A stretch of 64,000 nt of DNA from Antedon mediterranea. Lineage: Eukaryota > Animalia > Echinodermata. The stretch lies in the NCBI RefSeq assembly GCF_964355755.1, contig NC_092671.1, positions 2,976,001 to 3,040,000 on the forward strand. Reading direction: 5' to 3'. Position 1 is the stretch's first letter. Each line of letters opens with the position of its first letter. The notes under the pieces were generated by a model. The model made no database searches, was not told the DNA's origin, and worked only from the letters and a program-made list of their open reading frames with translations. Positions 2,270 through 63,555 of this stretch are shown in pieces. A program made the position numbers and the translations under genes.

Positions 2270-5200
2270 CTGAATATTAAATGAATTTATTTTAGCTGTA
2301 GTTATGTAATCTAAATTGAATGAATAAGTTTTGCCGGACCAGCAATCAATTAAACACTTGTACTTAGTCTGAATTATTGCACTACAAACTAATCAAAGTA
2401 CTTTATTAAAGTAGAAACCCCTCCTTTGGGACACCTCTATTATGAGGACACTTTCGTATCAAACTACCAAGGGGCATTATATATTTCAAAGCTCTGTCTA
2501 CACTATCAAACTCTATGTGGCAAAAACAAAAAACAATGTGATGTGCCCATATACTGTATGAACATGATGATGTCATATCACTACCATATTTGGGCACATC
2601 ACACTTTTTTTTGTCAAACTTGTTTGATAGTGTAGACAGAGCTTAACACTATAGCTAACCTCTATTTAGGAAACATCTCTATCTAGGAGACACTCTGTTG
2701 GGTTTCAAAGGGTGTTTCTTTAATATAGATTTTACTCAAAACCGTAAGCACATAAATCTGATATTTAATTTAAATTATTCTTGAAAGCGCATAAACTATT
2801 AACAAGAAAGTTTTCTTGCTATCCTGCTTAATTACCCATCATTCCATGGTCCTCGTAGGTGCTTCCGTGTAAGCTCTTGTACTCCGTGGAACCACTTCCA
2901 AAATGTGAAATTCCTACCTGGTAATGGATCCTGTAAAGAGATAGAAGCCAATCAAGTTGAAAAAACATTTATTTGTTCAACAATGGCATATTTTTTAACA
3001 GTGTAATATATAGGTGTGTACATTATTTAAATGAAACAAGGTAATAAGCCATCATTTGGGGTCTTCTCTAGAAGAAATCAAGTTTCTTGTCTCAAGAAAG
3101 ACCCCAGAAACAATACATATAAACTAATACAATTTACTACTTAAAATAATAAATAAAACAAAGAACGATGGAATAAAAATAGATACATTCAGAGTACTAC
3201 AATCATAATAATATTAAAATTAGTATAAAGAAATAAGATATTTTTTTAAATTTTACGAAAAGTATAAAGAGATTTAAAATGTGTTACTCTTTAGCAATAA
3301 TTAGGTTTAAAAGAGGGTGTGTTGTACTGTTTGTTTTCTGTATATTATTGAATATTGGATGTGATTTATTATGCTTAATATCTTGATGTTTTGACGCACC
3401 TTTTATAGATTAACTGCCACAAATATTATTAGCTTCAAAAAGGTGCGAAAATGCTGCTGTTTTTATTCAGATATTACCATTTTAACTCCATTAAAGTAAT
3501 GTTCAAATGCAATGCAAAAAAATACTTCAAAGTTAAAATTACCAATACAGTGCACTTAACCTATAATATGTGACAAACGTGTGACACTGTATGACAGATT
3601 ATTCCTAATATACTGAACAGAGATGTCCTAATAACATTGTAAGCATATGAAATACAAACCAATAGGTGAATTAAAAAAAAACCAAGCCAAACTGACCCTG
3701 TTAAATGTACTCCAAGATAGCTGGATTGTGGAATAGTCGTCTATTTGGATATTCTGGCCGCTAAATGCCTTCTGTGCTAGGTAATTAAGGTTCTCAAGTG
3801 ACAGACTTCTACCGTTAGCTGACATAAATTTAGAATTCAGAGCTTTCCCCATATCTGGCCAGGCTACTCTATCTGGTACTGCAAATGGAATCCTTCCCTA
3901 CAAAGCGTAAAATAAATTTTTACAAGATTAATTTTTGGCTTGTTATAAAAACAAAAAATCATACAATCTAGACAAAATGAATTCATTGTTTAACCTATTA
4001 ACCTATAAATCACATATTAAAAGGGTCTGTATAAATTACTGAAATACATTGAAATTATCAGAAAAAATTGGCTAATGTTTACTACAAACCAAAATTAGTT
4101 TTACTACGGTAATAGGAAATGCTGCTATTAAATATTATTATTTAGCAATTGAACTTTAATATAGAAAAAATTGATATATGCTACATTAATAAATCAATCA
4201 TTGTATTGTACAAATTCAGTATAAATAATCAAAAATAAATCTATATATTGAAAAGTTCCATTCTCATTTGAACCTGGAAACTTTAGTTACATGATGGGTA
4301 CTTAACAACTAGACCACAATGGATCATTATTATATATATTATTGTTTTCTTTATAATTAAAATATGTTATTAATTTGGTCATTCTTAAAAGATACTGTAC
4401 TATCTATAAAATATATTATATATGGTAAGAATTGGAGTTCAAAGGTCGTAATATTCAACTTACTGGCTCGGCAAAGGCATTGTCCCACAAGACTGTAGCC
4501 AATGCGTTCGACTCCTGGTTGCCGTGGACGATAACTACAACCGGGAGAGACATCGTCTGTGTGGTATGACAAGAAATTGTCCCATTTTTACGTATATTTA
4601 AGGACATCCCTAATTGGCAGAGTAAGCAGGCAGACGGCAACACAACCGTAAAAACACCAGCGTACCCACAGCAAATAAATAAATTAAAAGCAACGAAACA
4701 AAATAGAGAACCATGCAAGAACATAAACCCTTTCCAGAATAAATAAAATCAGAAAAATTAGAAAATGATTAGAGAAAATTTAGATAGCTTGTGAGTAATT
4801 CAGGAGATTTTCCATGTGTGTAGCCGTTTACCCACAATCCTCGGGAAGGAGCAACAGTTCCGATGTTCTCCCAGCATGCTTTAGCACTTACTGATTCGGC
4901 AAAAGCATTATCCCAGAGGATGGTCGCAAGAGCATTGCATTCTTGGTTACCATGCGAGACCACAACTACTGGTAGAGACATGGTCTAAAAAGAAGACGAA
5001 GAACGAAAAAAACGCAAACAAAATAAAAGAAAAGAACTGAAAGTAGCCAAAGAAAAAAAGCATTTAGTTTTCCGCAAAAGCTGCCCCAATTATTAAAACC
5101 AATTTCTATCACCAAGTAACAAAAAGAAAGAAAAACACAGACACATGAAAACACAACATGCAAATATAAGTGTAAACATTGATAATTATTATACAACAAG

Positions 5201-8200
5201 ATGAAAACATAAATATGCTGTATTCTATGTTAAAATGAATGATACATTAATAAAAAATATAAACATAATATATATAAAGTATTAGTCTCTTTCCGAGTGT
5301 AGACCACTTTTCAAAATTCTGGTCTGAAAAATGGTCTATTATTGGAGAGAGAGAGAGTGCAATTTATGGGTATATTCATAGTCATACAACAGAACTACAG
5401 TGATAATTCTAATTTGGCCACAATGATCAATGACTCATCATATAATTGTGGTTACATTTTGAAGGGTCAGGGTTAAAGATCCACCAAAAAAAAAAAATAA
5501 TAATAAAAAAAAAGCCCTCAGTGGGACTTGAACCAGGGATCTCAACTGTGAGAGGCTGGATACATAATCATTACACCAAACTCTCATCCACTACTTTGTA
5601 GTGTGCAGTTAGCCTATTTATACACTAGAACTAATAAAAAAAAATATAAAAAAAAAAAACATTTTTGGGGGGGAATTTTATGTCGGGAAATTTTACAGTA
5701 GGCGGAGGTTTGTACTCTCGGAGTACCCTCTAGTTGTAAATGTCATTTAAAGAGAAGGCCCCTGGATATCAGCTGACCTGTAGTTCAGCTGGAAGGGTTA
5801 CCCTCTTTAAATAAAGTTTAAATAAAATAAATTATAATTCAACACAAATTAAAATGAGCAGTGCAGACCAGTCAGTTTGAATTGAACTACAGTATAGTTA
5901 GCGTTTCAAACCCCATTTAAAATGTCAAAGTGGTACTTGTCACATATTTGGTTTTAAAAAGAACATTTCTCAAATAATAATTTTGGAGGATATTCTCCCC
6001 CTCCCTGACCTAACTCCATACCATGCCCAACCCATTGCCACTCCTGTACTATTTTTGGATGGTCACTTACCCTAACTTGAAACACTAGTTCACCACTGGC
6101 TATTGAAAATGTTGACTGAAACAGAATGGTAAACTTTTCTTCTGTAACAAACTGAAAATATAAATTTAAAATAATTAATTTAAATAAGTAAAACCAATTT
6201 ATAATGCACACATTTTATTGATGGTCACTTATGACAAACATTTGTTATTTGAATAAGGATAAGTATTTCATCATAATGTTAAAACACTAAGCACTGTCTA
6301 TACCATCAAACATTATGTAACAAAAAAATGTGATGTGCCCATATATGGACATGATGATGTCATATTACTACTATATTTGGAAATATCACTACCATATTTG
6401 GGCAAATCACACTTTTTGATTCACTAGTTTGATAGTGTACACAGAGCTTAAACCACATTTGTTTTCTAGAAAATGACATCAACAAATCAACAAATATTGT
6501 TTAAATGTTTTATTATTGTGTGTTTATTACTTTACATATAAGAATAAATACATTTCCTGTCAACCATATTTACCTCTGACCCCCTCCTATCTGCTCGTCG
6601 AATCCTCTTCAGTGACATATTTCTAAACGTTACAGTAAGATTGCCGGATTCTTTGTGGTATTCCATAACTCCACAGTTGTTCAAGATATCTCCACTTGTC
6701 TCACTAAAACGAAATAAGATACACAGTTAATAGAAAGCAAATGTATGTAATGTATGGTCTGCATGGCTTGTGTACTCGATTCATTCCTCTCTGATTTTGA
6801 AAGATTTGCAATTTCTTTTTGTTTTGTTTCTGTTTCTGAAGTTTTTTATTAGATCTTATCATAAATCATTAACGAATACTAGTACAAAAAGACAAAACTT
6901 TGGACATGAAGTAAAACAAACAGTAAAAAATTAGTCAACAACATTTTGTTTACAAAAAGCTGAACATGCATTAGAGTGTGTTAGTTATCACCAATAGATA
7001 ACAATTTTATTATTTTTTTTTCAGTTACGTAGGGCTATTCCGAATGACATGATGTGTAATTAATCAGAATACAATCAGGTGCGTTATAACATCCAATAGC
7101 TATAACTATTATTAAAAAATAATGATAATATGATATACTCACTTCATTCCTAAGTTATTATCATTGAGTAAATTCTTGGCTTGAGCCTCACTAACAATGG
7201 TAGCCTTAACTTGTGGGGGGTTCATGTGGACGTTTAGTTTACCCCCGACCAGTAACCGGACAGACGCTGCAAATCGTGTCTCCTTCTTCAGAACTTGTGG
7301 CGGTTGCTTCTCAATTATGAATGTACTGTTGAGAGAAAACAAATATTTGTTTTATATAATCTTAGAATTATAAAATAAAGGGAAAGGTGACTCATGTATT
7401 CATTCTCAATGTAAGGGAATGAGCTTAAGCTCCGTCTAAACTATCAAACTACTTTGACAAAATAAGTGAGATGTGCTCAAATATAGTAGCGATATGCCCA
7501 AATTTATGGTAGTGATATGACATCATCATGTCCATTATATGAGCACATCACATTCTTTTTTCATATAAAGTTTGATAGTGTAGACAAGGCTTTATTGTAC
7601 TAAGTCTTGGCATTATGTGGTAGGGTGATAAGTCTTAATGAGATATGCAACAAGTATACAGTAAATACAAATATAAACAAAGAATAAATTACATATTATT
7701 TACAATGTATGCTTTGTCATGAAAAAAAATACACAAAACAAATTAAAACACTGGAAAATAAAAACCAGTTGAGATCTTATAATTATATATAATACCTTAC
7801 ACAGTAAAAAAAGACAAATTGAAACTAAGAAAGGTACAAAATTAAGTTTAAGAAGGAACTGTATATAGATGTCATGTCATGTGGAAATCAAGGATTATCT
7901 TATATTAGATCTGAAGAATAAAAAATAAATCAAAAATAAAAATAGAAGTGTATAGCATGGCATAAACGTAGATCTGGAGTACACCAGCAGTGAAGTCAAC
8001 TGATACTATGTATCTGTCAATGATGGCCTTGTGTCTTCAGAAGAGAACGGTTACAAGAACAGTAATGTAATGTTGATAAATGATTCTATTCATCTAAGTA
8101 GGTAATGCATAAGTTTGTATCAAACAATCTTTTACTTGATGCATTGTATTAAAATTATGCATTAATTCTCATTTTGTATCATTACCATACAGTAGTACTA

Positions 8201-11200
8201 TTAGAGCTCTCTCCGTCCACTACGTCTTAAATAAATTACTCTGTATTTTCCAGCGAATGCATATACCATACGTTTGTGTTGGAAAAAAAAGAGGCTTACC
8301 ATTTCATATTCACACATTGATCTGATTTTGATGTAATATTTATGTAAATGTTCATATGTATTCGTTATGGTACCATATGTATAATGTTATTATATAATCG
8401 GGTTCTATACTTAATTAAAAAATCAAGTTAAATGGTACAAAATTCATTTAAAAGTAAATCTTCTCCATAAGTTAAAAAAAAGTTCTAAAATACTGTAGGA
8501 TTTTTTATTATTTATAAATCTGGTACCTTTAATCTGGTACCTTTAATCTGGTACCTTTAATCTGGTACCTTTAATCTGGTACCTTTAAAGTGGGGATGTT
8601 CTTTCTGTTATTTACTTAAGTATATAAATAGTAGTGGGTACAAGAAAAAATGTAAATAAAAATACGTATTTTCTGAGAAAACATCGAAAAAAGACCTAAA
8701 ACTTGTTTTTACTTTCTGTAATTGTAGTATTGAGTTCTGAAAGAAGATCTAAAACTCACCTTGTTACCAGCGTTGAGAAGAGAGCTTAATGGTGGTATTG
8801 AGTTCTGGGAAAAGATCTTTAAACTCACCTTGTTACAAACGTTGAGAAGAGAGCTGTAATGGTGGTATTGAGTTCTGAAAGAAGATCTAAAACTCACCTT
8901 GTTACCAGCGTTGAGAAGAGAGCTTAATGGTGGTATTGAGTTCTGGGAAAAGATCTTTAAACTCACCTTCTTACAAGCGTTGAGAAGAGAGCTGTAATGG
9001 TGGTATTGAGTTCTGGAAAAAGATCTAAAACTCACCTTGTTACCAGCGTTGAGAAGAGAGCTTAATGGTGGTATTAAGTTCTGGAAAAAGATCTAAAACT
9101 CACCTTGTTGCAAGAGTTGAGAGTAGAGCTGTAATGGTGGTATTGAGTTCTGGAAAAAGATCTAAAACTCACCTTGTTACAAGCGTTGAGAAGAGAGCTG
9201 TAATGGTGGTATTGAGTTCTGGAAAAAGATCTAAAACTCACCTTGTTACAAGCGTTGAGAAGAGAGCTGTAAAGGTGGTATTGAGTTCTGGAAAAAGATC
9301 TAAAACTCACCTTGTTACAAGAGTTGAGAGTAGAGCTGTAATGGTGGTATTGAGTTCTGGAAAAAGATCTAAAACTCACCTTGTTACAAGAGTTGAGAGT
9401 AGAGCTGTAATGGTGGTATTGAGTTCCGGAAGAAGATCATTACCAGGTACTTTCATTGGTAGTTGTTGTCTTAGTAACTCTACTTTCTTGATTTGTTGTC
9501 TGTTATGCCATGTGATTTCAGCTAACATTTCACACCTAAGTGTAAACAAAAATGTATTTAGGCACATTGCCAAGAATTGCCATAAGTGAATGTTATCACT
9601 GGTCTAATAGGTGACAATCTTTTCGCAAGACACTGTACATAAACAAAGTTTAACTATAACAAGACACTCTACATAAACAAATGATGGAGTGGCGTTTGCT
9701 GCTGTTGTTAAAAGCCCAGAACCCAGGGATTAATACTAACACATATTAACCACCAAATTTTATTTTTAGTTTGCTGTCATTTTATGCACCAGTTTATTAA
9801 TATTCATAAAGAAGTCAGTGAGTCTCTAGTTCTAATCATATTTGAATAAAAACTTAACCAAATATACATCAATGTTAAGTTCTGAGATTTGTAAATTTAT
9901 AAATTGGGACAAGGAGCAAATGTACACATTACAAACCCCTATTGAGGGGACACCCATATTAAGACAATTGTTTGGTTACAAATATGTCCCTTAGTAGGAG
10001 GTTCTACTGTTCAAGAAATCCATAATATACTTCTTTTTTTTAAACCATATTTACATCCAACAATTGCTGATCATTAGGGACCTTCAGAGGTTCACAAGAC
10101 AAGCATATACACAAGATGCTTGACATAAACAAAGTCTTACAAGTCTTTGGGAGTGGAGTTTTTTGTCCTTTGAAAAAATCTTGACATGTGACGGGACTTG
10201 AACCCAGTAACCATTTAATCACAGACATAAATAACATTTAGTCAAGCTCTCCTTTTAAATGTCAGAAGTACTTTCCATTATTGTTTTCAATGAAAACCTC
10301 CATTCAACTACTAAACGTATTTTAACATCGAGAAGAAATCCAAACCAAACATAGTGATTTAATGTTTCTCCGCACATACCATTTTTGTAATTGATCCAGA
10401 GTGCCCTCTAAAGGCCCTCCGATTCCAGCTAATTGTTGTCGTCGCTTCCATTGTATCAACTCGTCTTCTAAGACTGTATGCTGTACATCTTTGATTTTCT
10501 CAAACATTTGTTTGTGTTTTTCAGCCAAACTCTAAAAAAAATGTAAGGTTAACAACATTCAATTTAAAAATTATGTTTTGACTAAAGCTCTGTCTACACT
10601 ATCATACGTTATGTGACAAGAAAGTGATGTGCCCATATATAGACATGATGATGTTATATCACTACCATATTTGGGCACATCACACGATAAACATAATTGC
10701 GAGGTTTCCCTATTTTTACCAAGGAAATCCAACTTGATTAATATTAATATTCTCAAAAACTGTTTGCAGCTCTCCAAATTGTCAAGATTCGCAAATATTA
10801 ATTTCAGAATAAAATTTACATTACAAATTAATTTTCAAGTTTATTTTAATTTTGTGAAAAGCAAATGTTAATTAGAAGCAATAACACTGATTCCAGTTAT
10901 TTTCTAATTCAGATCATGAATAAATTTGTTGTTGTTAATGTTTTAATATGTCTAGCCCACACATTTCGCATAATGCTATCCAGTAGGAAAGAATGACATT
11001 TCAAAGTCCCTAGAAAGTAGTTTGTTTATGTACAGCTCTGAAATGATAAGTAAACTGATCCATGTTGTACATTAGACATAGAAAAATGTTATGACCTACA
11101 TTTGTGTACCCAGGTCAAATAATAAAAATGTCACATATATTGAGTACCCAAGTCAATGATAATTTAACATCATGTGACCAGTATTTGGCAAATTTCACAT

Positions 11201-14200
11201 ACATTGAGTACCCAAGTCAATGATAATTTAACGTCATGTCACCAGTATTTGGCAAATGTCACATATATTGAGTACCCAAGTCAACATTAATTTAACGTCA
11301 TGTGACCAGTATTTGGCAAATGTCACATATATTGAGTACCCAAGTCAATGATAATTTAACGTCATGTGACCAGTATTTGGTTAATGTCACATACATTGAG
11401 TACCCAAGTAAATGATAATTTAACATCATGTGACCAGTATTTGGCAAATGTCACATATATTGAGTACCCAAGGCAATGATAATTTAATGTCATGTGACCA
11501 GTATTTGGTTAATGTCACATACATTGAGTACCCAAGTAAATGATAATTTAACATCATGTGACCAGTATTTGGCAAATGTCACAAACACTGAGTAAGTACC
11601 CAAGTCAATGATAATTTAACATCATGTGACCAGTATTTGGCAAATGTCACATATATTGAGTACCCAAGTCAACATTAATTTAACATCATGTGACCAGTAT
11701 TGGGAAAATGTCACATACATTGAGTAGCCAAGTAAATGATAATTTAACGTCATGTGACCAGTATTTGGCAAATGTCACATATATTGAGTACCCAAGTCAA
11801 TGATAATTTAACGTCATGTGACCAGTATTTGGTTAATGTCACATACATTGAGTACCCAAGTAAATGATAATTTAACATCATGTGACCAGTATTTGGCAAA
11901 TGTCACAAACACTGAGTAAGTACCCAAGTCAATGATAATTTAACGTCATGTGACCAGTATTTGGCAAATGTCACATACATTGAGTACCCAAGTCAATGAT
12001 AATTCAACATCATGTGACCAGTATTTGGCAAATGTCACAAACACTGAGTAAGTACCCAAGTCAATGATAATTTAACATCATGTGACCAGTATTTGGTTAA
12101 TGTCACATACATTGAGTACCCAAGTAAATGATAATTTAACATCATGTGACCAGTATTTGGCAAATGTCACATACATTGAGTACCCAATATGATTTCAAGC
12201 TGTGACTGCCATGTGTCACATCTTTGACATACAAATGTCACCCACCCATGTGGTCGTCATAGAAGTAATAAATCATACATATTGACAGATGTGGTTTTAA
12301 TTCACACATTTTCATATACATGTCAGCAAGCAATAAAACTATATTATTAGAAAGTATTGGTATTCCTGAAAAATTAGAAAGAAACTCAGATATCTTGTTG
12401 GGAATAATGATGCCCGGAATATTGTAAAACTTACAATTCTCATTGTTAGCAGATGTTGTGCTTCTGTTTGTAATACAGTCTCTAGGTCCATTTTCTTTTG
12501 CTTTAGCAACGGTTCCTGAGCTAACCGATTTGGATCTCTTTCCGGCAGAGATTGTAATTGTGCTAACTGATCTGAAGATAAAGCAAACATTCATTCACTC
12601 ATCACTGGAAAATAATTTCAATTTATTAAAAATATATATACATTATGTTTGCTCAAGCATTCTGTGGTCATGGATGATTCGATTACATTTTTTAGGCAAA
12701 CTGTACCAGGGCTAATTTTGAAATCTACTTTTTATTATATTACTTAGGCCGTAAGACAAATCTTAACCAAATTTAAACCGCAGATATGTGGTCACAGAGG
12801 GCAAGCCGGACCAGGATCCCAATTCTGGACCACTCATTATTTTACTAATTTAAGGATGTACGTCAAAACTACAAGATGGATCTTTTTCACGATTCTTGAT
12901 CATCTATAGCTAATGTAGAATTTACTATGTAGATAAAACTCTGTCTACACTATAAAAAAAATGTGATGTGGCCATATATGGAAATGATGATGTCATATCG
13001 CTACCATATTTATTTAAGCATATCACCACCATATTTGAAAATATACATCACACTTTTTTTTGTCAAACTAGTTTGATAGCTTTGGGTGTTTTAGTTACTG
13101 TACTTACTTTGTAATTTCAGATTTTCTTGATATTGAAAGACAAACATCTCTTGTTTTTGTTGTAAGGTATCCAAATCCTTTTCTGTATCCTATACATGAA
13201 TAAGTATAATGACCATGCATCAATAAAATACACAAGTAAGAACTGTATATGACTACTGTATGTGGTCTAATGGTATGTTACCAACTCTGAAAGTCATGGG
13301 TCTAACTCCTCTTCTGTACCCTATAGATGAACAGTTTTAATGGCCAAATGCATTGATCAATAAAATACACTATTAAGTGTTGTATGTGGTATAATAATCC
13401 TAAAAGAGATCTTTTTTTTCATACAATAAAATTTCTTCTTCCTTGAGGAACACATTTGCATATTATTTGACAAATCTGACCTAATTTGCATATTATTTAA
13501 ATATTATTTGACTAATTATAAGATACATACAGCCGTCATGATCCTCAACTCATGTAAAGTTGTTTCAATACTTTCATGACTGTCTGACATTGGTGTTCTT
13601 GCCAAGTTACCCTGCAACATACAAAACACAAATTATTATATCAATTTTACCCCCTTTTTTTTGCGATATAAATATGTTTGATTTAGTTAGGGAGAAAGAC
13701 AGGGAGGTAATTTACTGTATAGTATAGCCACTACTGTTGACTATTACTCTAGAACCCCTCTTTTTGGACACACCTATTTAGGGGACACACCCTAAAGCTA
13801 TAGCACATTCACACTACTTGTGTTGTGATGGAAAATTAGAGTTTATCAGCGCCATCTTTCAGTGTTGATGTAGTTTTCCTCAGGGACACCAACAATTAAG
13901 GGGACACCACCTAATAAAGGGGAATTTCCTTCCTTTTTCTGAATCAACGTCAAAATATGGTTTAACAATTTGGCTAACACTATTAAGGGACACCTCTATC
14001 ATTATGACAATTTTTTGAGTCATAGAAATGTTTCCTTAAAGTTCTACTGTATCAGTGCAGTGTTTGTTGCTGTTATACAAGTCGCTTTAAATACGTCCAA
14101 CCCTGGAATACTGTAATAATGTCTGGGTTCCTAAGTTTTTAGCAGATGAGGATAGGTTGGAGAAGCTACAACAAAAGGCCACCCGATTCATTCCGGAACT

Positions 14201-17200
14201 AAGGGGTACAGAGTATGTATGTAGGATAAAAATACTTGATCTTCCTACGTTAGTTTATAGAAGAAAGAGAGCTTCTCTGATCCATGAAAGGATTCGATAA
14301 ATTGGACACTGAAACCTTTTTTAATATGTCAACTATCCATTATACTAGAGGTCATTCTTTCAAACTGTTAAAGCCGCGGGTCAAAACTAAATGGGGATCA
14401 AATAATTTTGAAGCAAGAGTAGTTAATGATTGGAACGCTTTGCCGAGAGTTGTTGTGGAGTCAAAGTCATTGAATCAGTTTAAGTCTAATTTGAAAGAAC
14501 ACTGGAAAAACCACCACCAGAAGTTTCAGCCGTATGATTGTTCCATTTCTTGCAAAAACCGGACCACTTTAGTTCTCGTAGCTACCGTACATCCCTGTGT
14601 ATTATTTTAAAAAACAATTTACTTACACCGGCATCGTCTACAAGGCTTTGTTCCACTTCAATGCAATATCTTATTGTTCGTACAAAATTTAAAGGCGATA
14701 TACTCCATCGTTGCTATAAATATAAAACATACAAGGCATTAATAATCAATTTCTAATATCACAGTATAATCCAATGCTATAAATATTTTAAATTGTATTT
14801 TTATATTATCAATAACAATTGAAAAAACATATTACCTATAATAATAAGTATAACATAAGAATAATACAGAAGGGAATTAACAATAAGGAATTTCATATAA
14901 AAGGCATAATCCAAAGTGTATGAATAAAACAGTAAATGACATTAAACTCAAATTAAATGTAAAAACATAATTGGATAAAAAGACATTACAGATCATTAAT
15001 TACATTTCCAATAAAATACTAAGAAATTAGTATGAATAAAAGATAACTGTATTTATTAATACATGTGCAAAAATGATAGCATTCTATTGTAGTAAAATCT
15101 AGCAAAGATCCCAGTAACTGGCTCGGGTTTGGCCAGTCAAACAAATGGGAATTTGTAAACTCGGACTGGGCTTGCGCAAAACTTAGAGGGCGTCTGGGAG
15201 AAGAGAGTATATTGAGATGTATGCAGACAGTTAGTCTATAAGACCTGTTTTCGTTTTCGCTGCTTCTTAAATTATCAAATAGAATATCAATTTTTAAAAA
15301 AGACAATAATTAACAATTAATTATTACATCAAAATGTCGAGCAGCATTTTTTGTAAGAAATATTTCTTGTTTCATATATATTTCATAATTTGTATAAATT
15401 ACCATGTATATTTTTCAATTTGTTTACTAATACCGTATAGTATTCTATTTTGTTTCTAATTTTCATGTGATTTGGGATTGATAGATTTAATGTTCATTAT
15501 GTTACGACAGATTCATTAATTTTCTTATTAGTTTCCTTTCCATTTCTGTCATGGCTAGAATACATGTCATCCAATTCTAATTACATGTCTCTAACTACTA
15601 CAGTATATCTATCATAGTTATCTTGTCTTATCTGGTCATTCTCATCTCCATGCTATTGTTAATTTAACTTTAGGCCATGGCAAATAAATTACATGGTTCT
15701 CATCATCAGTCGGCCACATGAAATATTTGGTCCATCATAAAAAATGTTCATTTGTATACATTGGAATCAGGGATTCTAAAGAAACGAACATGAGAAGGAT
15801 ATGAACATAAGAAGGATATGAACATAAGAAGGATATGAACATAAGAAGGATATGAACATAAGAAGGATATGAACATGTTTTAACACTACAACTACAGTAA
15901 AGCTCTGTCTACTGTACACCCATCAAAAATAAAATAAATCTAGAAAATCTCTACTTTAGCTCTGAACTTTGATTTTTTAGATCTTTGACGTAACTTAATG
16001 CATTTAACATTCAAAGTTTTGTAATTAACGTGTGTCTGGTATTATAGGATCACTACAAACGTCATCATTTTATGAACTATACTGAATACTCTTAAAATCT
16101 TGTTCACACTAGACCATTCTCCTTTAAGCTCTGTATACACTATCAAACTAGTTTGACAAAAGAATGTGATGTGCCTAAAAATGGTAGTGATATGCCCAAA
16201 TATGGTATTGATATGACATCATTATGTCCATATATGGGCACGACCTTTTTTGTCACATAAACTTTGATAGTGTAGACAGAGCTTAGGTAAATGTAGACAG
16301 CATTATGATTGGACTTTTTGAACTTTACCAAAGTCTTTCGAAAAGCTTTTAAAACAGGATTTCAAAATAAACATAGATTGTAGGTATGTCTATGTTTCTT
16401 TCCTGTCTAGACGATAAACAACATTAATAATTAAAAAATCTAGGAGTAAGAACAATATGCATATTATTATTCTATGAATTATGTATGAAATACGTATTTC
16501 CCAAAAGATTTCAGAAAAGTGTAGCATGCAAAACTTAAATTAAAATCTTTCCTCTCATGCAAGTATTTAAATAAACTGTATTCCAGATTATAAATTAAAT
16601 TCTTCAATATTTCATCCATGTTACATCACCATGACAACCATTAAACATTAATATAGGTTACCGTATGCAATTTTTAATGAACAAGAAACATGTCTGATTC
16701 ATAATTATCAGTGGATTTACTCCAATATGTTGTAAATTTTCTCACGATGAGTTACTGTAGGAGTGATTAACTCATCTGGCTCATCTACCATACTATTTAC
16801 ATACCGTATTTATTTGATTTTAGGTGGGAGGGGCGTTTATTTAATGGAGGTGTTTATTTAAAGCGGGGTGTTTATTCGAATAAATACGGTATGAATTTTG
16901 TGTGTAATTTTGTATTCCTTTAAACAACATTATGGTGAAATAAAGAAAGAAGATCTACAGTACAGTATCAATCACATGCCATACATTTTATTTCAAAATC
17001 TAAACCATTATTAAGGGACACCACACAAGCTATTATGCCAGTGTCACTAGTTAATGTAACAAATCATGTCGGAAATGATGACAAAACCACAATATTCCCT
17101 CTTAATTAATTGTACTGTAAGATAAACAATGTGTGACGTTTCAACTAATGATTTAAGAAAATAAACTAAGCTTACATCTAACTCTCTTGCAAATTGGTTT

Positions 17201-19426
17201 AGCTTCAGTCGGATTGGAAACATCATTTCATCTGACAATCCTGATGCTTTCTGGTTTACTTGCTGGATGAGTTCTTGCAGCAGCATCCTGGCATTTGGTT
17301 CCATACTAAGGTCATCGACATTGATGCCTTGCCTAACAAGAAAAATGTTTACCTCTTTTTATAATACTGTACCATGGAGATATAAAAATAAGCTGCGTCT
17401 TAAGCTCTGTCTACACTATCAAACTAGTTTGACAAAAAAAGTGTGGTGTACCTAAATATGGTAGTGATATGCCCAAATATGGTAGTGATATGACATCATC
17501 ATGTCAATATGGGCATATCACATTTTTTTTTTGATACAGTAGTGTAGACAGAGCTTAAGTAATGAGTAATACCCATGAAATTGCAAGAATGATGGGGTCT
17601 CAAGTGGGTGTCTTCACCGGTCGGTGGGAAAAAATAAAACAGTTTACTTGTCTACACGATCAAACTTTATGTGACAAAAAATGTGATGTGCCCATATATA
17701 GACATGATGATGTCATATCACTATCCTCTTTGGGCATATCACTACCCTCTTTGGGCACATCACACTTTTTTTAGTGTAGACAGAGCTTTAGGCACCCAGA
17801 GGTTTCTTGAGTTGGGTGCTGTTGCAATTTAGGCTAGGTGGAAGGCATTACCAAGATGGGTATGAGATTTTGAAGTTGGCTTTACACACTGTACCCACCT
17901 CTCTGCCTAATTACACGAATGATGTATTGCACCACTGCCATAATGACACAAAAACAAACCCACCATGGATATAAATAAGCCCACTCTGATATGATTAAGC
18001 CCACTTTGGATATAAGCCCACTCTGATACAGTATGATTAATCCCATTTTGGATATAGGCACACTCTGATATGATATGAAGTTGACTATGATATGATTTGG
18101 GTATAAATAGGCCCACTCTGATATCAATAAGCCCACTTTGGGTATAAATAAGTAATCCTTTAAATGTACAGAGTAATGTTGTTTTATAGAATGACTCATT
18201 TCAAAATTCTGCTGTGCCCACCTTGGACAGAATGGGGTAGGCCTACAGTACATTCAAGACTTTTAAGAATATAAAACTGAAATATTAATAATCTTAAATC
18301 TATTCATTGATTGAAAATGAATATTGCATGATATTTTTAAGGAAAATCAGACGATCTTTGCCTTATAACTTATATTATGAAAAAACATCAAGGCCAGTTC
18401 TTAAACAACTAATGAACAGTATAAACACATCAAATACATGAACCCAGTTTTAAGCTACCTGGATAATTTCCGATGACATGACACATATCAAATAAAGAGG
18501 CCCTGGAAATTTATTTTTAACACATTGGATTTTCCCCCATTGATATCAGATTACGGCTTACATTGTATTATCATGTAAATCTGATCCAGTCATGATATAT
18601 TTCCAACCAATGGCCTGCATCTTGTCTTTTTAAAAAGGGTGTATAGCTGAATTTAACTTAGGTAGTACAATAACTATTTACTGAACTGCGTCATGAGATC
18701 AAGAAACCTAACTTGCTTAACTCGGGGCTCTTACTACACTGTACTGTATATAAAGTAACTTGCTAATAAAATGTCCTGGTTGTAATAATATAACAGGTGG
18801 GTTTACAGTGTCACACAATATTTAGGCCTATAGCACTGCACATCAATTTCAAAAACACAGTGCAATAGTGTCTTTAATAATTAAAATTAGAGAAAATAAT
18901 GCATTGCATGTGATATGAAATCAACCAATCAAATAGTAAGGATATACAAAGTACTGTACATGGCAACTTCTGAAGGGAGGTGGTTTTTTCTTTAGGTCAA
19001 CAGCACTCTATTTATTATCGAGAGGTAGCGTGTGTGCAGTGTGTGACTCGCAAGCGATATTGCATGGTGGAGTGTTCAGGAAAAAAATAATGACTGCAGA
19101 TGGTTGTATAATGGATTAAATATCGTAAATTTGCATGCGTGTTATATTTTAATGCACAAAACAACACATACTGTACATCAAAATTCAGTTATCTTTGAAA
19201 ATGTGCAAAACCAGAAGCACAATATTAGGCCGGAAGACAGTCTAAAAAACAGGAGTGTTGGCATGTATGAGATGTGTTATAATATTTTAACCTACCAATC
19301 TTGAGCCTCAATCCATGAGGCACAGTAATATCTGATTTCCATTGGGAATTGTGTATGCATGTACAAGGCCTGCAGCTTTTGCAAGTCCTCTCCCTGCAGC
19401 TGCTGTAAGCGTAGTATAAGAGACAT
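2130..19426 (-). CDS. STAT5: STAT5/STAT6-like signal transducer and activator of transcription, multi-exon, 3'-partial (N-domain, coiled coil, DNA-binding domain, linker, start of SH2)
   Basis: 15 GT-AG exons join in one frame (1906 nt using one copy of exon 12). Motifs: [102 protein letters not shown]. Confidence 0.96.
2489..2644. mobile_element. About 160-bp MITE family A (PIF/Harbinger-like), representative full copy
   Basis: TIR AGCTCTGTCTACACTATCAAACT...AGTTTGATAGTGTAGACAGAGCT with TTA/TAA-type flanks. Other copies or fragments at about 131-274, 6289-6449, 7427-7592, 10584-10685, 12935-13080, 15899-15920, 16126-16284, 17402-17556, 17649-17789, 22657-22693, 27810-27927 and 52141-52236. 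Confidence 0.88.
2836..2930 (-). CDS. STAT5: STAT coding exon 14 ([32 protein letters not shown])
   Basis: CAG acceptor, GTAATT donor, 95 nt. Not in the ORF track. Confidence 0.95.
3697..3897 (-). CDS. STAT5: STAT coding exon 13, linker ([20 protein letters not shown]...LSWSTFNR)
   Basis: TAG acceptor, GTCAGT donor, 201 nt. Confidence 0.94.
4464..4556 (-). CDS. STAT5: STAT exon 12b, alternative copy ([31 protein letters not shown])
   Basis: CAG acceptor, GTAAGT donor, 93 nt, phase 0-0; canonical STAT5/6-type motif. Confidence 0.92.
4892..4984 (-). CDS. STAT5: STAT exon 12a, alternative copy ([31 protein letters not shown])
   Basis: TAG acceptor with a long U-rich tract, GTAAGT donor, 93 nt, phase 0-0. 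Confidence 0.9.
5514..5580 (-). mobile_element. tRNA-derived SINE head / tRNA pseudogene
   Basis: A-box TGGTGTAATGA and B-box GGTTCAAGTCC; stems imperfect. Confidence 0.55.
6071..6151 (-). CDS. STAT5: STAT coding exon 11 ([27 protein letters not shown])
   Basis: CAG acceptor, GTAAGT donor, 81 nt; VTEE motif. Confidence 0.95.
6289..6449. mobile_element. MITE family A copy
   Basis: Same TIRs and internal GTGATGTGCCCATATATGGACATGATGATGTCATAT. Confidence 0.88.
6574..6703 (-). CDS. STAT5: STAT coding exon 10 ([43 protein letters not shown])
   Basis: TAG acceptor, GTAAAT donor, 130 nt. Not in the ORF track. Confidence 0.95.
7143..7325 (-). CDS. STAT5: STAT coding exon 9, start of DNA-binding domain ([14 protein letters not shown]...NNLGM)
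   Basis: CAG acceptor, GTGAGT donor, 183 nt; close match to the STAT5 motif. Confidence 0.96.
7427..7592. mobile_element. MITE family A copy (reverse orientation)
   Basis: Same TIRs; TTA on both sides. Confidence 0.85.
8517..8587. repeat. 14-bp tandem repeat (AATCTGGTACCTTT) x5
   Basis: Read directly. Confidence 0.9.
8720..9440. repeat. 69-bp tandem array derived from the STAT exon 8 / intron junction (about 10 copies)
   Basis: ACTCAC (donor, reverse complement) at 8754, 8823, 8892, 8961, 9030, 9098, 9167, 9236, 9305 and 9374. Confidence 0.95.
9380..9535 (-). CDS. STAT5: STAT coding exon 8 ([19 protein letters not shown]...[11 protein letters not shown])
   Basis: TAG acceptor, GTGAGT donor at 9374-9379, 156 nt. 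Confidence 0.93.
10380..10531 (-). CDS. STAT5: STAT coding exon 7 (SLAEKHKQ...[28 protein letters not shown])
   Basis: TAG acceptor, GTATGT donor, 152 nt; WKRRQQLAG motif. Confidence 0.95.
11127..12187. repeat. 64-bp intronic minisatellite, about 16 copies
   Basis: Unit AATGTCACATACATTGAGTACCCAAGTCAATGATAATTTAACATCATGTGACCAGTATTTGGCA; some units carry a 4-bp insertion. Confidence 0.95.
12435..12571 (-). CDS. STAT5: STAT coding exon 6 ([16 protein letters not shown]...QHLLTMRI)
   Basis: CAG acceptor, GTAAGT donor, 137 nt, phase-consistent coiled coil. Confidence 0.88.
13108..13189 (-). CDS. STAT5: STAT coding exon 5 ([27 protein letters not shown])
   Basis: TAG acceptor, GTAAGT donor, 82 nt; resembles STAT5 [22 protein letters not shown]. 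Confidence 0.9.
13531..13611 (-). CDS. STAT5: STAT coding exon 4 ([27 protein letters not shown])
   Basis: CAG acceptor, GTATGT donor, 81 nt; resembles the start of the STAT5 coiled coil. Confidence 0.85.
13745..14052. mobile_element. Degenerate CAGTAGAACC...GGTTCTACTG (pogo/Tigger-like) MITE family B
   Basis: GGGACACC repeats and a TTCTACTGTA end; related remnants at about 2408-2740, 9930-10010, 41855-41980, 43305-43480, 45915-46045 and 49493-49695. Confidence 0.6.
14090..14540 (+). mobile_element. CR1-like LINE 3' fragment (end of the RT ORF)
   Basis: [11 protein letters not shown]...[16 protein letters not shown]...LPTLVYRR and TRGHSFKL...[10 protein letters not shown]...SLNQFK motifs; frameshifted. 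Confidence 0.85.
14627..14713 (-). CDS. STAT5: STAT coding exon 3 ([29 protein letters not shown])
   Basis: TAG acceptor, GTAAGT donor, 87 nt; resembles STAT5 PLELVRCIRHILYNEQRLV. Confidence 0.88.
15786..15876. repeat. 17-bp tandem repeat (GAACATAAGAAGGATAT) x5
   Basis: Read directly. Confidence 0.9.
16126..16284. mobile_element. MITE family A copy (reverse orientation)
   Basis: Same TIRs. Confidence 0.88.
17176..17332 (-). CDS. STAT5: STAT coding exon 2 ([25 protein letters not shown]...FARELD)
   Basis: TAG acceptor, GTAAGC donor, 157 nt, phase fits neighbours. Confidence 0.92.
17402..17789. mobile_element. Two adjacent, oppositely oriented MITE family A copies (17402-17556, 17649-17789)
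   Basis: Same TIRs and internal motifs. Confidence 0.85.
17960..18150. repeat. Degenerate tandem repeat (AAGCCCACTCTGATAT core)
   Basis: Recurrent GCCCACT motif. Confidence 0.7.
19296..19426 (-). CDS. STAT5: STAT coding exon 1 ([44 protein letters not shown])
   Basis: ATG at 19426, CAG acceptor at 19448-19450, GTAGGT donor; STAT N-domain motif. Not in the ORF track. Confidence 0.92.
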
Positions 19427-23857: not shown

Positions 23858-24600
23858 ATGGGCACATGGTACAGACATGGGCACATGGTACAGACATGGG
23901 CACATGGTACAGACATGGGCACATGGTACAGACATGGGCACATGGTACAGACATGGGCACATGGTACAGACATGGGCACAGGGTACAGACATGGGCACAG
24001 GGTACAGACAAGGGCACAGGGTACAGACATGGGCACAGGTACAGACATGGGCACAGGGTACAGACAAGGGCACAGGGTACAGACAAGGGCGCAGGGTACA
24101 GACATGGGCACAGACAGGGTACAGACATGGGCACATGCTACAGACATGGGCACATGGTACAGACATGGGCACATGGTACAGACATGGGCACATGGTACAT
24201 ACATACTGTAGGCACATGGTACAGACATTGGCACATGGTACAGACATTGGCACATGGTACAGACATGGGCACAGGGTACAGACAAGGGCACAGGGTACAG
24301 ACAAGGGCACAGGGTACAGACATGGGCACAGGGTACAGACAAGGGCACAGGGTATAGACATGGGCACAGGGTACAGACAAGGGCACAGACATGGGCACAG
24401 GATACAGACATGGACACAGGGTACAACCAAGGGCACAGACAAGGGCACAGGTTACAGATATAGGCACAGACATGGGCACAGAGTATAGACATGGGCACAT
24501 GGTACAGACATGGGCACATGGTACAGGCATGGGCACATGGTACAGATATGGGCAGGGTACAGACATGGGCACAGAGTACAGACATGGGTACAGACATACT
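23858..24600. repeat. 19-bp minisatellite (ATGGGCACATGGTACAGAC), with a detached remnant at about 24845-24910
   Basis: Read directly; explains the stacked Cys/His-rich ORFs. Confidence 0.97.
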
Positions 24601-46383: not shown

Positions 46384-46805
46384 TCATTCCCCTGCTGTTA
46401 TTGGTTCTTTTTTTGTTAGATTGATAATTTCATTAATAGCCGTCTCTGAAGCCTCGTCTACTGCTGTTTCATTATTAATGAAAGGAGAACCGTTTTGGGG
46501 TTCTGTACTGTCCTCTACTCCTTCCAATTCTTGCGCAACACCCGCCATCTCACTGTCGGATTTCCTACCATTTGTGGCATGGTTTTCCGTGTCTTGTGTC
46601 AATTCGGGGTAGGCGTGTTGTTGCGCTAATCGCAGCCCTTCTCCTACTAACGTATGCCTCATTAATAGTTTCTGTGTTTGACCTTGCTTGACCTTTGGCA
46701 TCATTGACACATACGGGGATGTGTTTAACGTCGTGGCATCCACGGCATGATGATCTTCTGGCATGGGCGATGAGGTAGCACTTCGGTTACCACTATCATT
46801 ATCAC
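46384..46805 (-). CDS. NAB: NAB terminal coding exon (DNDSGNRSATSSPMPED...HTLVGEGLRLAQ...TKKEPITAGE*)
   Basis: CAG acceptor 46806-46808, TGA stop; EGLRLA motif as in the vertebrate NAB2 C-terminus. Confidence 0.88.
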
Positions 46806-49800
46806 CTGAAAAGATAAAATAGTTTAAAGATGATGAGCTACAATATGCTTATGAATAATAGTAATGCATTTGGAATTAAGATTAGTGGAGCTGTAGCTTA
46901 GTGGTTAACATGCTCGCCTTCCAATCCAAAGGTCCAGGATTCATTCCTGACCTAGTGCCACTCACAACTCTTTCAACTCCACTACCCAAGCCTCAAATGA
47001 GACTTAGTAAATTATAAAATAGATCAATTATCAATCCCGTCATTGGAAAATAGTAGTACAAAAGTACAAAAATGAAGATTAGGTTGGTGGGTCTGAGGGT
47101 AGTTGGGTATCAAAATGACCAGATTTTTAATGGAAAGTAACTACTACTAAGATGGGAGACAGGTACCCACCCTATTTCTTCTATTTCATTTCTGTGAAAA
47201 ACAACTTAATTTTGTGGATATGATTGCTTGAATGCAATGCAAGGGTCTAACTAAGCGCAAATCAAGGATGTAAGTGCAACGCAGGTAACTTGACCAGTCA
47301 TGACACGCTGAATAATAACTGTCACTTGTGATTGGTCAACTCGCTTGCACTGCATGTATGCCACGCAAAAACCAAGCTTTAGAGATACCATCGAGATATA
47401 ATGCCAATGACGAGGAATATACATACCTTCATGAGATTTTACACTTGAGTTTCCAATGTCACCAATGACCTCATCAAAATCACCATATGCTCTGGCTTTA
47501 GCATCATAGTACCTGAAGTAAAATATCATACACTGTAAAAATATGCATTTAAATTACGTGAACATGCTATCTGGAAAACCATCTAAACCGAACATAAATA
47601 AAATCTAATATGATAGAAATTTGTATCATAATATCTAATGCCAGTTTTCCACTAGGCGAATAAAAAATCTCTTAGCTTGGATTTTTGGCAAAAAAAGCAC
47701 AGTAGACGAAAATATGAATACATATCCGCATATTTCAATCACTGTAAGTTTATTCATAGAAGGTCTACCAAACATGTTACTGTATATATATTTTGATATG
47801 CATGAATAAATTCACCTAGTAGAAAACAGGCCTAAGTCTAAATGTAGCCAATCTAATACTATAGCTTCATAAACCACCTTTGTTCAAATTAGGTCACATA
47901 GAAGAGAGACGACAACGGGATTTTAATTGAGTATATAAATACATAAAATAGATTATTATCGCAAACAAAAACCAGTTAGAAAATGATATGTATACAAAAA
48001 TAAAAACATGGATACTGCCTTAGTAATTAGGGTTTTTCACCTTGCAGGTTGTTGTATATTGTCAGCTGGTTGCGGGCCGTGACCATCTTGTTGTGGCGTT
48101 CCTCCATGTGACGCAATTCGAACGACAGGTGATTTAGGCCTAGGTAGTAATAGTAGTACTATTATTATTGATTTTACCAGCCATTAGGTTTATAAATTGT
48201 TTATATTACTAAGCTAACCCATTTAGTTGTATATACTTTATTAAATTTATTTATCAAAGTTACCAAATGTACCATGCCAAAACAAAAAAAAACTTTAATA
48301 AATGTTAGTTAAGTATTCTGTTACATAGCAAAATATTTTTTAAAATTCCACCACTAAATATAGTGCAGTACACTCAGTAGTACAAATTTAGGCAGTGAAA
48401 TACTAGAGAGTTTTAGATTTCCATCGACCAACGAAGTAAGTACATAAATTTACTGTGTGGATGCAAAGATATTGGGACTTGTTCCTTTCTTCCCAACTCA
48501 ACGCAGTTTTGATGACTTCTGGTTTAGAAGATCGACGACCGATTGACCTGACCTGGGTCATCGGTCATCAAAACTGCACTTACTCTTTCATATAGTGCAT
48601 TTTTTTGTATTCTTACTGCCCAATATATGCCTTCAATTCATTTGATAATAAGCCCCAGTTTTGTCCTCCTCGCCCCACCCCACTCTCACAATGGTAGAGT
48701 CCATTATGGGTAGTTATTGTCCCGAGTGGTTATCTTTCTCTTCCCATTCTAACAATGGTAGAGTCCATTATGGGTAGTTATTGAACCGAGTGGACATCCT
48801 TCTCTCCCCAATCTAACAATGGTAGAGTCCATTGTGGGTGATTATTGTCCAATTTCCGTGTGACTGTATGTGGAATTTTCTGATTAAAAGCAACTAATTG
48901 ACCATCATTTTTAATGTAGTAGTTTACCTATCTGATCTGCGTTGTTTCTTAATTAAATCTGTCTGTTCTGTCATTAGCATTAACTGTTGCGTAGTGAGTT
49001 TTTCCAACTCAATCTGCAGATCGTAAACTGCTTGTAGATTCTCGTTCTCTTTAGCATTCTGTATGTCGGCTTTAATATTATTTTGTGTTTGTTTTATCTG
49101 ACTGAGCTGTGTGGAGATCTCATTCATTCGTTCCTGGAAATAAAATGAATAGAAAGATTATTGTAAAAGTACGCTCTTACAACAATATAATTCACACTCA
49201 AAAGAAAATGAATGGAAAAACAATAATGCGTGCATTGAGTAACAATGGACAGATGTCGATAGATACAAATTAAAGCTAACTAAAAATGAAAAAGTAAACA
49301 GAAACAAGCTTATTTGTAGTAACATTCGTTCCATTTCTCAGGGTTAGAAAGAAAAGAGTAACATTTAAAACAAGAAGGGCATGACTGATTTGAATTGTTG
49401 TAATTAAAATCAATGAATAAACAACAAATTCATAGAAACAGTGTGCCTATTTTGGAGCATGAATCATGTACCTGTACATTGTCACATCAAGATACAGTAG
49501 AATCCCTATTAGGGAGACACTTTCATGATCCAAAAGTGTGTCCCCTTATTAGGTGGCCCTTGAGTAAGGTGTGTCCCCTTATTAGGTGGCCCCTGAGTAA
49601 GGTATGTCCCCTTATTAGGTGGCCCCTGAGTAAGGTGTGTCCCCTTATTAGGTGGCCCCTGAGTAAGTATATTCTTAAGGAGAGGCTGTTCTAATTTGAT
49701 TATGGTGATTTATTTCGATACAAACACAGAAAAGAACAAACGGAAAATGCAATTATTTGTTATGATTCCAGGAATAGCTCTCTAAATTTCCAGATGGATT

Positions 49801-62204: not shown

Positions 62205-63555
62205 GTTGGTGGTGTTTCAAGACCGAAAGCCTGAAATCGTACATTTGAATGATTAAAATAAAACTATAGTACACAATTCATAAGGTTTAACCATCTACTG
62301 TACACTATGATTTAAATAAGGCTTTTAGTAATAATTAATTACTCATTAGATGAAAATGGTGAAGAATAAAGTCCAATATTATATTGGGTATAGAATCATA
62401 ATAAATTGTTGGGATGCAATGCTAGCTCTCTTATGTTTATACTGTACATGGAATGTTTATGATAAAGGTGTATTTATAATTTTACATTTTTTGAAACTCT
62501 ACCACATACAAAAACATTGCACAGTTTAAACCAATTCCTAGTACTGTATAGCGGTTTACCCTTTTCCTCAATTGTTTTTTCCGTAAATTACTAAAAATAT
62601 GAATTAATGGAAAACATTTTTCTAGCTTGCTGACATTTTATTTTCAGTGTACATTTATTACTGATGACAATTGAACAAATGTTATAGGATACTTCTGCTC
62701 TACAGATAATAAAGTTTATAAATTCTAAGGGTGGTTGTGAAAAGTTAAGGGTATAATAACTGACACAACAGAGGTATTACTACTGCTACTACTATACTAA
62801 GAATCTTAATATTTGTACTGATTTTGTTATTTTAACAAATAATAATATTCAATCCAATGATTATATTGATTGACAAATAAAGTCAGTTACTTAAAAATTA
62901 GATTTAATTTTATTTGTATTTATTTTTTAACCATTATTAAGTTCAATAGTGAATAGTCAATACAAAAACAATTTTAACTTTAACTTGTTTTGATTTAAAT
63001 CAACGTAAAAACTTCCACAAATTAATCAGTCTACTAAAATATAATGAGTGTTTTTCAAGCTTGGACATTGTGTTGGTGATCACACCCTGTTCCCATAGCC
63101 GGGTGTAATGGATTCAATATGGTAAATTACAAAATAAATTTTAAGAACATTTTTACAATTTAAACATAAAAATAATGTTTATGATGTATCATAAGTTATA
63201 ATTTATTTCAGAATTTCTGTACATAATGTTATAATTTAACACTTGCATGAGAAAGTGTTGTCTACTGGCTAAAAATTAGGGAACCACTACCCTTTTCATG
63301 AAATGGACGATTCCAGCCTTGATGATTCCCCGGTGGTGTGTGAACGAATAACATTGGTGAGGTCAATTTTCTGGCACGACAATGCTCCCAACCCCGCGAT
63401 TATCGCTTTCCATCTGCTAGGCTTAACCACTCTCCGTCAAGCGATTGTGGCCTAGAAACTCACTCACATTAAACGGTGAAAACTAAGGTATTTTAAACAA
63501 CACATTTTTGACATCTAGCACAAATAAAAGATCTAAACACAGTGAAACAACTTAC

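Follow-up and report, generated by a model that had tools for sequence, protein, structure and literature searches.

Twin STAT exons in the echinoderm Antedon mediterranea and a predicted intronic RNA structure with a plausible role in exon choice

How can a cell include one of two adjacent homologous exons and leave out the other, when both keep the reading frame? This question is raised by a STAT gene of Antedon mediterranea, which lies in the window analysed here, a stretch of 64,000 nt (contig NC_092671.1, positions 2,976,001 to 3,040,000; all coordinates below are those of the window). The gene is on the minus strand, with coding exons from about 19426 to beyond 2128. Many of the exon matches are 100% identical to the A. 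mediterranea RefSeq proteins P0035 and P0115 (tblastn), and the exons match RefSeq STAT5-like proteins. Compared with solved structures, the ortholog P0007 scores 755 bits against STAT5A, 390 against STAT6 and 254 against STAT3, and is thus closest to STAT5. The segment of interest comprises the following elements.

6071 to 6151, minus strand: constitutive STAT exon 11, which precedes the pair (tblastn with Antedon RefSeq proteins; 3' end joined to exon 12b in the X5 and X9 contigs).
4892 to 4984, minus strand: exon 12a, 93 nt, Ser-His form of the DNA-contacting segment (AG/GT boundaries, open frame).
4557 to 4891, minus strand: intron between 12a and 12b, 335 nt (from the sequence).
4464 to 4556, minus strand: exon 12b, 93 nt, Val-His form (present in Antedon RefSeq P0035 and P0115; joined to exons 11 and 13 in the X5 and X9 contigs).
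3697 to 3897, minus strand: STAT exon 13, constitutive, downstream of the pair (protein matches; contig comparison).

The two exons are adjacent, homologous and equal in length and phase, with intact AG/GT splice sites. They are identical at 64 of 93 nt and differ by five amino acids, while 19 further codons differ synonymously. As both are 93 nt long, frameshift followed by NMD cannot enforce exclusivity, a point that the initial annotation had made correctly, together with the intron length. Exon 12a of the window is 100% identical to Anneissia isoform X2 (P0007) and is missing from both A. mediterranea proteins of the cluster. The spliced contigs of runs X5 and X9 contain 12b without 12a; as rare forms drop out of such assembled contigs, the absence of 12a there says nothing about its expression. 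The frame of 12a remains open for 40 codons into the intron and that of 12b for 64 codons upstream (4557-4748), which we attribute to chance, the strand being poor in A. Use of the AGs at 4611 and 4731 would add 54 and 174 nt in frame to 12b; no such use was seen.

The pair is found well beyond Antedon. Of the two exons, 12a alone is present in 10 of 34 echinoderm proteins and 12b alone in 22, and one protein lacks the region; the remaining one, P0097, a gene model of the S. purpuratus cluster, carries 12a and 12b consecutively, so that double inclusion occurs in one of the 34 proteins. Both forms are annotated in the gene models of five species from three classes (one crinoid, three sea urchins and one sea cucumber), namely Anneissia, S. 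purpuratus, one Lytechinus set, Diadema setosum and Apostichopus; the RefSeq isoforms XP_033121858.1 and XP_033121861.1 of Anneissia japonica are an example. These three classes separated in the early Palaeozoic. A single form is observed in Patiria (12a only), in Amphiura (12b only) and in hemichordates, where three proteins are all of one type. The echinoderm pair was also present in one of the best 80 of 125 confirmed metagenome places. This locus, L001, shows 12a and 12b in the same order as the window, with an intron of 1096 nt. Codon changes between the window and L001 are mostly synonymous, with 12 synonymous to 3 non-synonymous in 12a and 16 to 1 in 12b. The first two codons of 12b are common to both loci, and those of 12a differ. 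Judged by these sequences and by the gene models of relatives, in which they are used as alternatives, the twin STAT exons are real and old.

The genome-contig scan returned only two irrelevant bacterial loci, and no crinoid ORF was found among the read-through ORFs that might reveal intron conservation. Three other echinoderm-type ORFs gave nothing in a degenerate comparison with both introns. Of six ORF-ORF pairs, two passed through low-complexity stretches; the two that have urchin-like exon ends failed (203 of 300). Two further metagenome loci, L063 and L064, each carry a second, inverted copy of an annelid-type exon, possibly an assembly artefact. In the literature searched, in which subscription journals are thinly covered, no title or abstract deals with twin STAT exons of echinoderms or tunicates or with their RNA structure. 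The same two exons are already public as alternative isoforms in the gene models of five species.

The structure in question lies in the intron between the twins, where the initial annotation had proposed a long-range stem. Its parts, including the extensions revealed by folding, are as follows.

4817 to 4835, minus strand: 5' arm of the stem (pairing and fold; no listed change in organism B, a close relative).
4626 to 4644, minus strand: 3' arm of the stem (pairing and fold; no listed change in organism B).
4787 to 4816, minus strand: inner extension of the rod, 5' side, pairing with 4646-4672 (P 0.81-1.0 for 4797-4791 with 4663-4669, weaker between).
4646 to 4672, minus strand: inner extension of the rod, 3' side (predicted fold).
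4673 to 4786, minus strand: U-rich terminal loop of the rod, with several branch-point-like motifs (4769, 4758, 4749) (fold; five of the six located organism B intron changes are here).

The pairing of 4835-4817 with 4644-4626 at 17 of 19 positions, including three G-U pairs, was confirmed on the minus strand, and the stem appears in both the MFE and the centroid structure of intron 4557-4891. The additional outer pairing of 4870-4862 with 4608-4600 did not survive: it amounts to -5.4 kcal/mol, with P at or below 0.01 in all nine folds. The stem duplex itself has -23.3 kcal/mol and pair probabilities of 0.69-1.0 in the intron at 37 C, and it is kept at P 0.89-0.98 in all 15 folds, whether or not exon 12a is included. 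It is the central part of a longer rod in the prediction (4842-4787 with 4620-4672). The best long-range duplex of the intron reaches -26.0 kcal/mol against a shuffle mean of -19.2 (sd 2.1), and none of 200 shuffles is as strong; the stability of the intron as a whole is ordinary (z -0.15). Duplexes as strong or stronger are found in 11 of 382 genomic windows of 335 nt, in 8 of 150 GC-matched windows and in 4 of 59 sense windows of the gene. The strongest of these rival windows look like inverted-repeat elements, probably, as they recur on both strands. The stem arm is not a repeat family, with one other match in 64 kb, at 2 mismatches. In the segment from exon 11 to exon 13, the best non-overlapping alternative partner of the arms is at most -18.2 in strength, versus -23.8 to -24.7 for each other, and a scan of the same segment found no docking site/selector system of the Dscam exon 6 or 14-3-3 type. 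Rfam gave no match. The stem is a real, above-chance feature beside a real, old pair of alternative exons.

A second complementarity emerged post hoc from a scan for partners from exon 11 to exon 13. It involves a purine-rich segment after the 12a donor, which we call element A.

4854 to 4879, minus strand: element A, which is complementary to the acceptor and first nucleotides of 12b and can instead form a local hairpin at 4872-4847 (22 pairs, -28.1 kcal/mol; hairpin P 0.6-0.76 in the intron alone).
4537 to 4560, minus strand: target of element A, the acceptor ACAG and the first 20 nt of 12b (duplex prediction).

In the predicted duplex, 4879-4861 pairs with the exon at 4537-4555 and 4857-4854 pairs with the acceptor at 4557-4560. 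Shuffling gave this energy once in 2000 trials for the element region (first 60 nt) and twice in 2000 for the whole intron, the latter being the fairer test as element A was found after the fact. The z-score is -4.24 at 12b, versus -0.91 to +1.71 at 14 other acceptors of the gene. When 388 genomic windows were compared with A, only the exon's own complement was stronger, and one unrelated window reached -28.0 kcal/mol. Element A matches 12b at exon nucleotides 3 and 12, which are synonymous sites where 12a differs. With the start of 12a, A reaches -16.0 kcal/mol, a value found in 264 of 2000 shuffles, with P at or below 0.001, and a search for an upstream partner of A between 5120 and 4931 gave at best -17.8. 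Given this weak pairing with 12a, we reject for the window a symmetric scheme with A as a mask of either exon.

The duplex of A with 12b nests outside the stem, and adding 20 nt of 12b to the folded intron shifts the z-score from -0.15 to -2.32 (3 of 100 shuffles). Its probability is 0.62-0.84 if the fold starts at the intron and 0.07-0.22 with exon 12a included. The ensemble-energy cost of forcing it is 0.7 kcal/mol if the stem is present and 3.0 if it is absent. This difference, and the competition between the duplex and the local hairpin of A, are the reasons for which we view the stem as a scaffold and the system as a two-state switch. The initial annotation had suggested masking of the weak 12b acceptor as one of two possible effects of the stem. 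This idea fits better than the steric one, but by a different pairing, in which 4875-4854 of A covers the acceptor AG and 17 nt at the start of 12b. In these predictions, the pairing over the 12b acceptor is more telling than the stem.

The reading that we prefer, with about an even chance of being correct, is that the stem serves as a scaffold by which element A would be placed on the 12b acceptor and mask it. Folding predicts two states, closed and open, that are nearly equal. In the closed one, A would pair across the AG and the exon start of 12b, so that 12b would be hidden and 12a would splice to exon 13. In the open one, A would be held in its own hairpin and 12b would be available, while the rod would keep the 12a donor near the likely 12b branch point and hinder joining of 12a to 12b. 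As A pairs poorly with the start of 12a, we found no silencer of 12a here. Should the intron adopt these folds in vivo, the rod likely helps the cell to use one exon copy at a time.

The steric part of this scheme concerns the following site.

4622 to 4628, minus strand: candidate 12b branch point, A4623, at the base of the stem (consensus match; A unpaired with P 0.97, 4628-4626 and 4622 paired).

Of the good branch-point matches, A4623 lies closest to the 12b acceptor; it is 3 nt from the base of the stem. Looping had been expected to bring the 12a donor close to the 12b branch region, and the path between donor and A4623 is indeed shortened, from 268 nt in the linear intron to a median of 34 steps in 300 sampled folds. 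Shuffled introns, however, have a median path of 69, with 7 of 100 reaching 34 and 19 of 100 at or under 50. Because some shuffled introns give paths as short, steric geometry alone is a weak argument, and in the open state exclusivity would depend on it; it is the weakest step of the model.

A simpler possibility is that the stem alone enforces exclusivity by looping, the donor and the 12b branch point being brought too close, with A incidental. The stem is stable in every fold, the consensus branch point sits at its base, the rod of L001 also ends 12-20 nt from the AG of 12b, and the folded path is below the steric-exclusion threshold of about 50 nt given in PMC7969005. That threshold is defined for linear distance, though, and is likewise undercut by the shuffles mentioned above, while A4623 is a candidate only. 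Moreover, long-range pairing has been described as bridging splice sites and aiding splicing (PMC11802352), and a stem acting alone leaves the stronger duplex of A with 12b unexplained. We consider this explanation unlikely compared with a stem that serves as a scaffold for A.

The initial annotation had drawn an analogy with Dscam exon 17. For Dscam1 exons 17.1 and 17.2, Yue et al. in 2013 reportedly ascribed the steric block to linear closeness of the branch point and the choice between exons to RNA structure, with an intron-exon pairing that is said to mask a splice site and structures conserved over many species. The likeness to the STAT intron lies in a two-exon pair in which RNA structure is combined with a branch-point constraint. 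If so, the analogy is not exact, as the block there is linear, whereas the STAT donor and candidate branch point are 268 nt apart in linear distance and conservation is seen only in a close relative.

The exons 4a and 4b of OGDH (PMC7969005) resemble the STAT pair in being tandem exons with a short intervening intron and a U-rich tract far from the acceptor. In OGDH, according to that paper, 25-41 nt separate the branch points from the donor and there is an AG exclusion zone. By consensus match, the intron of the window has no branch-point candidate 12-90 nt from the donor, and such a zone is missing from both loci, with AGs at positions 4731 and 4611 of the window and, in L001, 11 AGs within some 200 nt upstream of the acceptor.

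Conservation was assessed with organism B, a close relative represented by contigs of runs X6 and X7 (two samples of one study) that span the intron. They differ from the window in the intron by four substitutions and two single-base insertions. Five of these six changes fall within the terminal loop, and the sixth, at 4879, is on the outer margin of A; the arms, the core of A and both exons have no listed change. The in-frame AG at 4731-4730 is altered in organism B. The long contig of run X1 shows 11 differences. The surroundings also diverge little.

4300 to 5193, no strand assigned: low-divergence block around the exon pair, with 12 substitutions in 894 nt (2 of the 12 not located).

A neighbouring background intron has 83 substitutions in 813 nt. 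The 221 paired and splice-proximal nucleotides have no located substitution, versus 22.6 expected at this background and versus 4 in the 114-nt loop (Fisher p 0.013). For the arms alone, the low substitution gives p 0.017, and for A alone p 0.09. The flanking introns have 6-8 substitutions in 373 nt, which differs from the paired part with p 0.03-0.09, or 0.008 with indels; because they are conserved as well, the constraint is not specific to pairing. Invariant pairs are evidence of constraint and not proof of pairing. No covariation of the stem was seen: the arms have no listed change in organism B and are not recognisably conserved in L001, and no compensatory change turned up.

As about 900 nt are conserved, much of it beyond the helices, it could also be that linear signals and splicing proteins exclude one exon, through a distant branch point, a U-rich tract, the weak 12b acceptor and factors bound to the conserved block, the structures tuning the ratio at most. 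The 12b acceptor is pyrimidine-poor in both loci (4557-4570 in the window, L001:1410-1423), the last 12 nt being similar. Both introns have long U-rich tracts far from this acceptor, and in L001 an A at 359, which is 32 nt past the 12a donor and ahead of a poly-U run, resembles a branch point, by consensus only. A pair of alternative exons 3 in Rdl is reported to work by linear signals and proteins (PMC13762713). The best motifs of the window (4769, 4758 and 4749), in contrast, are 122-142 nt from the donor, the AGs at 4731 and 4611 precede the true acceptor, and the U-rich loop that carries the motifs is the most variable part of the intron. This mechanism is improbable in our estimation, to the same degree as looping by the stem alone.

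For the intron of L001, too, folding predicts a long rod, whose ends lie at about 429-460 and 1380-1411 and in whose core 547-625 pairs with 1250-1325, mostly at P above 0.9. This intron-spanning rod covers about 980 nt (429-1411) and ends close to the 12b AG, at the distance given above. It includes 125 pairs spanning more than 500 nt, versus at most 98 in 60 shuffles, with a stability z-score of only -1.83 (4 of 60 shuffles as stable). The 12b acceptor of L001 sits in a local intron-exon hairpin with P of about 0.75. As a masking element resembling A, L001 offers a G-rich stretch 34-50 nt after the donor, which pairs with both exon starts no better than shuffles do (1305 and 1424 of 2000, the latter at -17.0 kcal/mol). 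A helix of 541-550 with 610-619, with 10 nt identical to the 3' arm of the window, was considered as a homologue of the stem and rejected, as 60 of 360 shuffles are equal and its P is 0 in eight folds. The architecture, a rod and a covered 12b acceptor, may thus be shared by the window and L001, and the individual helices are not.

The lack of sequence conservation in L001 and the ordinary stability of the whole intron would suit a further explanation, that the stem and the match between A and 12b are neutral by-products of GC-rich islands or of an old local inverted duplication; so would the 11 genomic windows with an equal or stronger duplex, four of them sense windows of this gene. Yet two independent nested helices beat the shuffles (0 of 200 and 2 of 2000), one of them lying exactly on the acceptor of the alternative exon, the paired part is spared by the changes in organism B, and the arm is not a repeat family. 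We regard neutral origin as very unlikely, less probable than either of the two preceding alternatives, and masking of the 12b acceptor by A on the stem scaffold as the better account.

Among known systems, human ATE1 exons 7a and 7b offer the closest parallel to masking by A, in that an element of the intervening intron pairs over the downstream acceptor and suppresses it (PMC7797038). According to Kalinina et al. (PMC7797038), element R3 of ATE1 pairs with regions overlapping the acceptors, in competing R1R3 and R3R4 structures; R3 serves both acceptor regions, is conserved across vertebrates and is supported by compensatory mutants. Element A differs in pairing strongly with 12b only, in having a local hairpin as its competitor, in having a mostly exonic target and in being a prediction only. 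A strong predicted pairing with the downstream acceptor region was found, and a comparable one with the upstream acceptor was not. By this analogy, the STAT switch would work most like the R3R4 half of ATE1, and we do not file it as ATE1-type because a second, equal partner at the upstream exon is missing. Structures of the ATE1 type are usually not conserved over long distances, as stated in PMC7797038, and since such structures are seldom conserved far, one distant ortholog such as L001 neither confirms nor refutes the model.

The window contains other repeats and genes. A very abundant short element with apparent terminal inverted repeats occurs in several STAT introns (about 2346-2680, 6290-6450, 7371-7700, 16081-16415 and 17421-17755); in four of these windows the predicted stems exceed in strength the one between 12a and 12b, and the copy near 6300-6420 has very high depth. 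An array at 8716-9438 (unit of 69 nt, 10.5 copies, 92% matches) is built from the last part of STAT exon 8 and the GT donor that follows it, and judging from its sequence is a run of decoy donor sites in the intron. Minisatellites occupy 11126-12187 (64 nt, 16.4 copies) and 23858-24593 (19 nt, 39.5 copies). Upstream of STAT, minus-strand frames at 61344-62216 and 46387-49157 look like exons of what we take to be a NAB (NGFI-A-binding) gene. In vertebrates, NAB2 adjoins STAT6.

One of the residues in which the two exons differ immediately precedes the conserved, base-contacting His and is Ser in 12a and Val in 12b. From the x-H/N-x-x-Q spacing and the structure matches, this position probably corresponds to the DNA-contacting S459 of STAT1, S465 of STAT3 and V414 of STAT6. 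In STAT1, the S459 position helps to form a pocket for thymine methyls, and the S459A and S459R variants are described as nearly non-specific (PMC5737217).

A comparable pair was observed in a tunicate-like STAT (L034:1524-1768, L036:428-672 and ORF P0001), which carries twin copies of the same DNA-binding exon and is closest to the STAT of Phallusia mammillata, at 72-92% on three segments. A His form of 93 nt comes first and an Asn form of 99 nt second, separated by an intron of 53 nt, which would allow plain steric exclusion. The first exon reads Val-His and the second Val-Asn, Asn being the base-contacting residue of STAT1 and STAT3; the Phallusia protein P0264 carries the Asn form. From its sequence, this duplication likely swaps the base-contacting residue itself. 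As the order and the residues differ from those of the echinoderm pair, it probably arose independently.

It is tempting, if doubtful, to generalise: a single echinoderm STAT might have two DNA-binding modes through an RNA-structure switch, a STAT1/3-like Ser and a STAT5/6-like Val, tunicates having independently arrived at a His/Asn choice, so that splicing in invertebrate deuterostomes would have produced the division in DNA recognition for which vertebrates used gene duplication. The sea urchin genome is reported to have a single STAT (PMC3670131). A structural role in the exon choice described here is plausible, given the predicted folds. Acceptor masking by RNA structure is already known as a class of mechanism, and this locus, if the model is true, would provide a compact unit of 520 nt in which to test it outside insects and mammals. 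If RNA folding sets the choice between 12a and 12b, the way in which an immune and developmental STAT of echinoderms reads DNA would be tuned by it.
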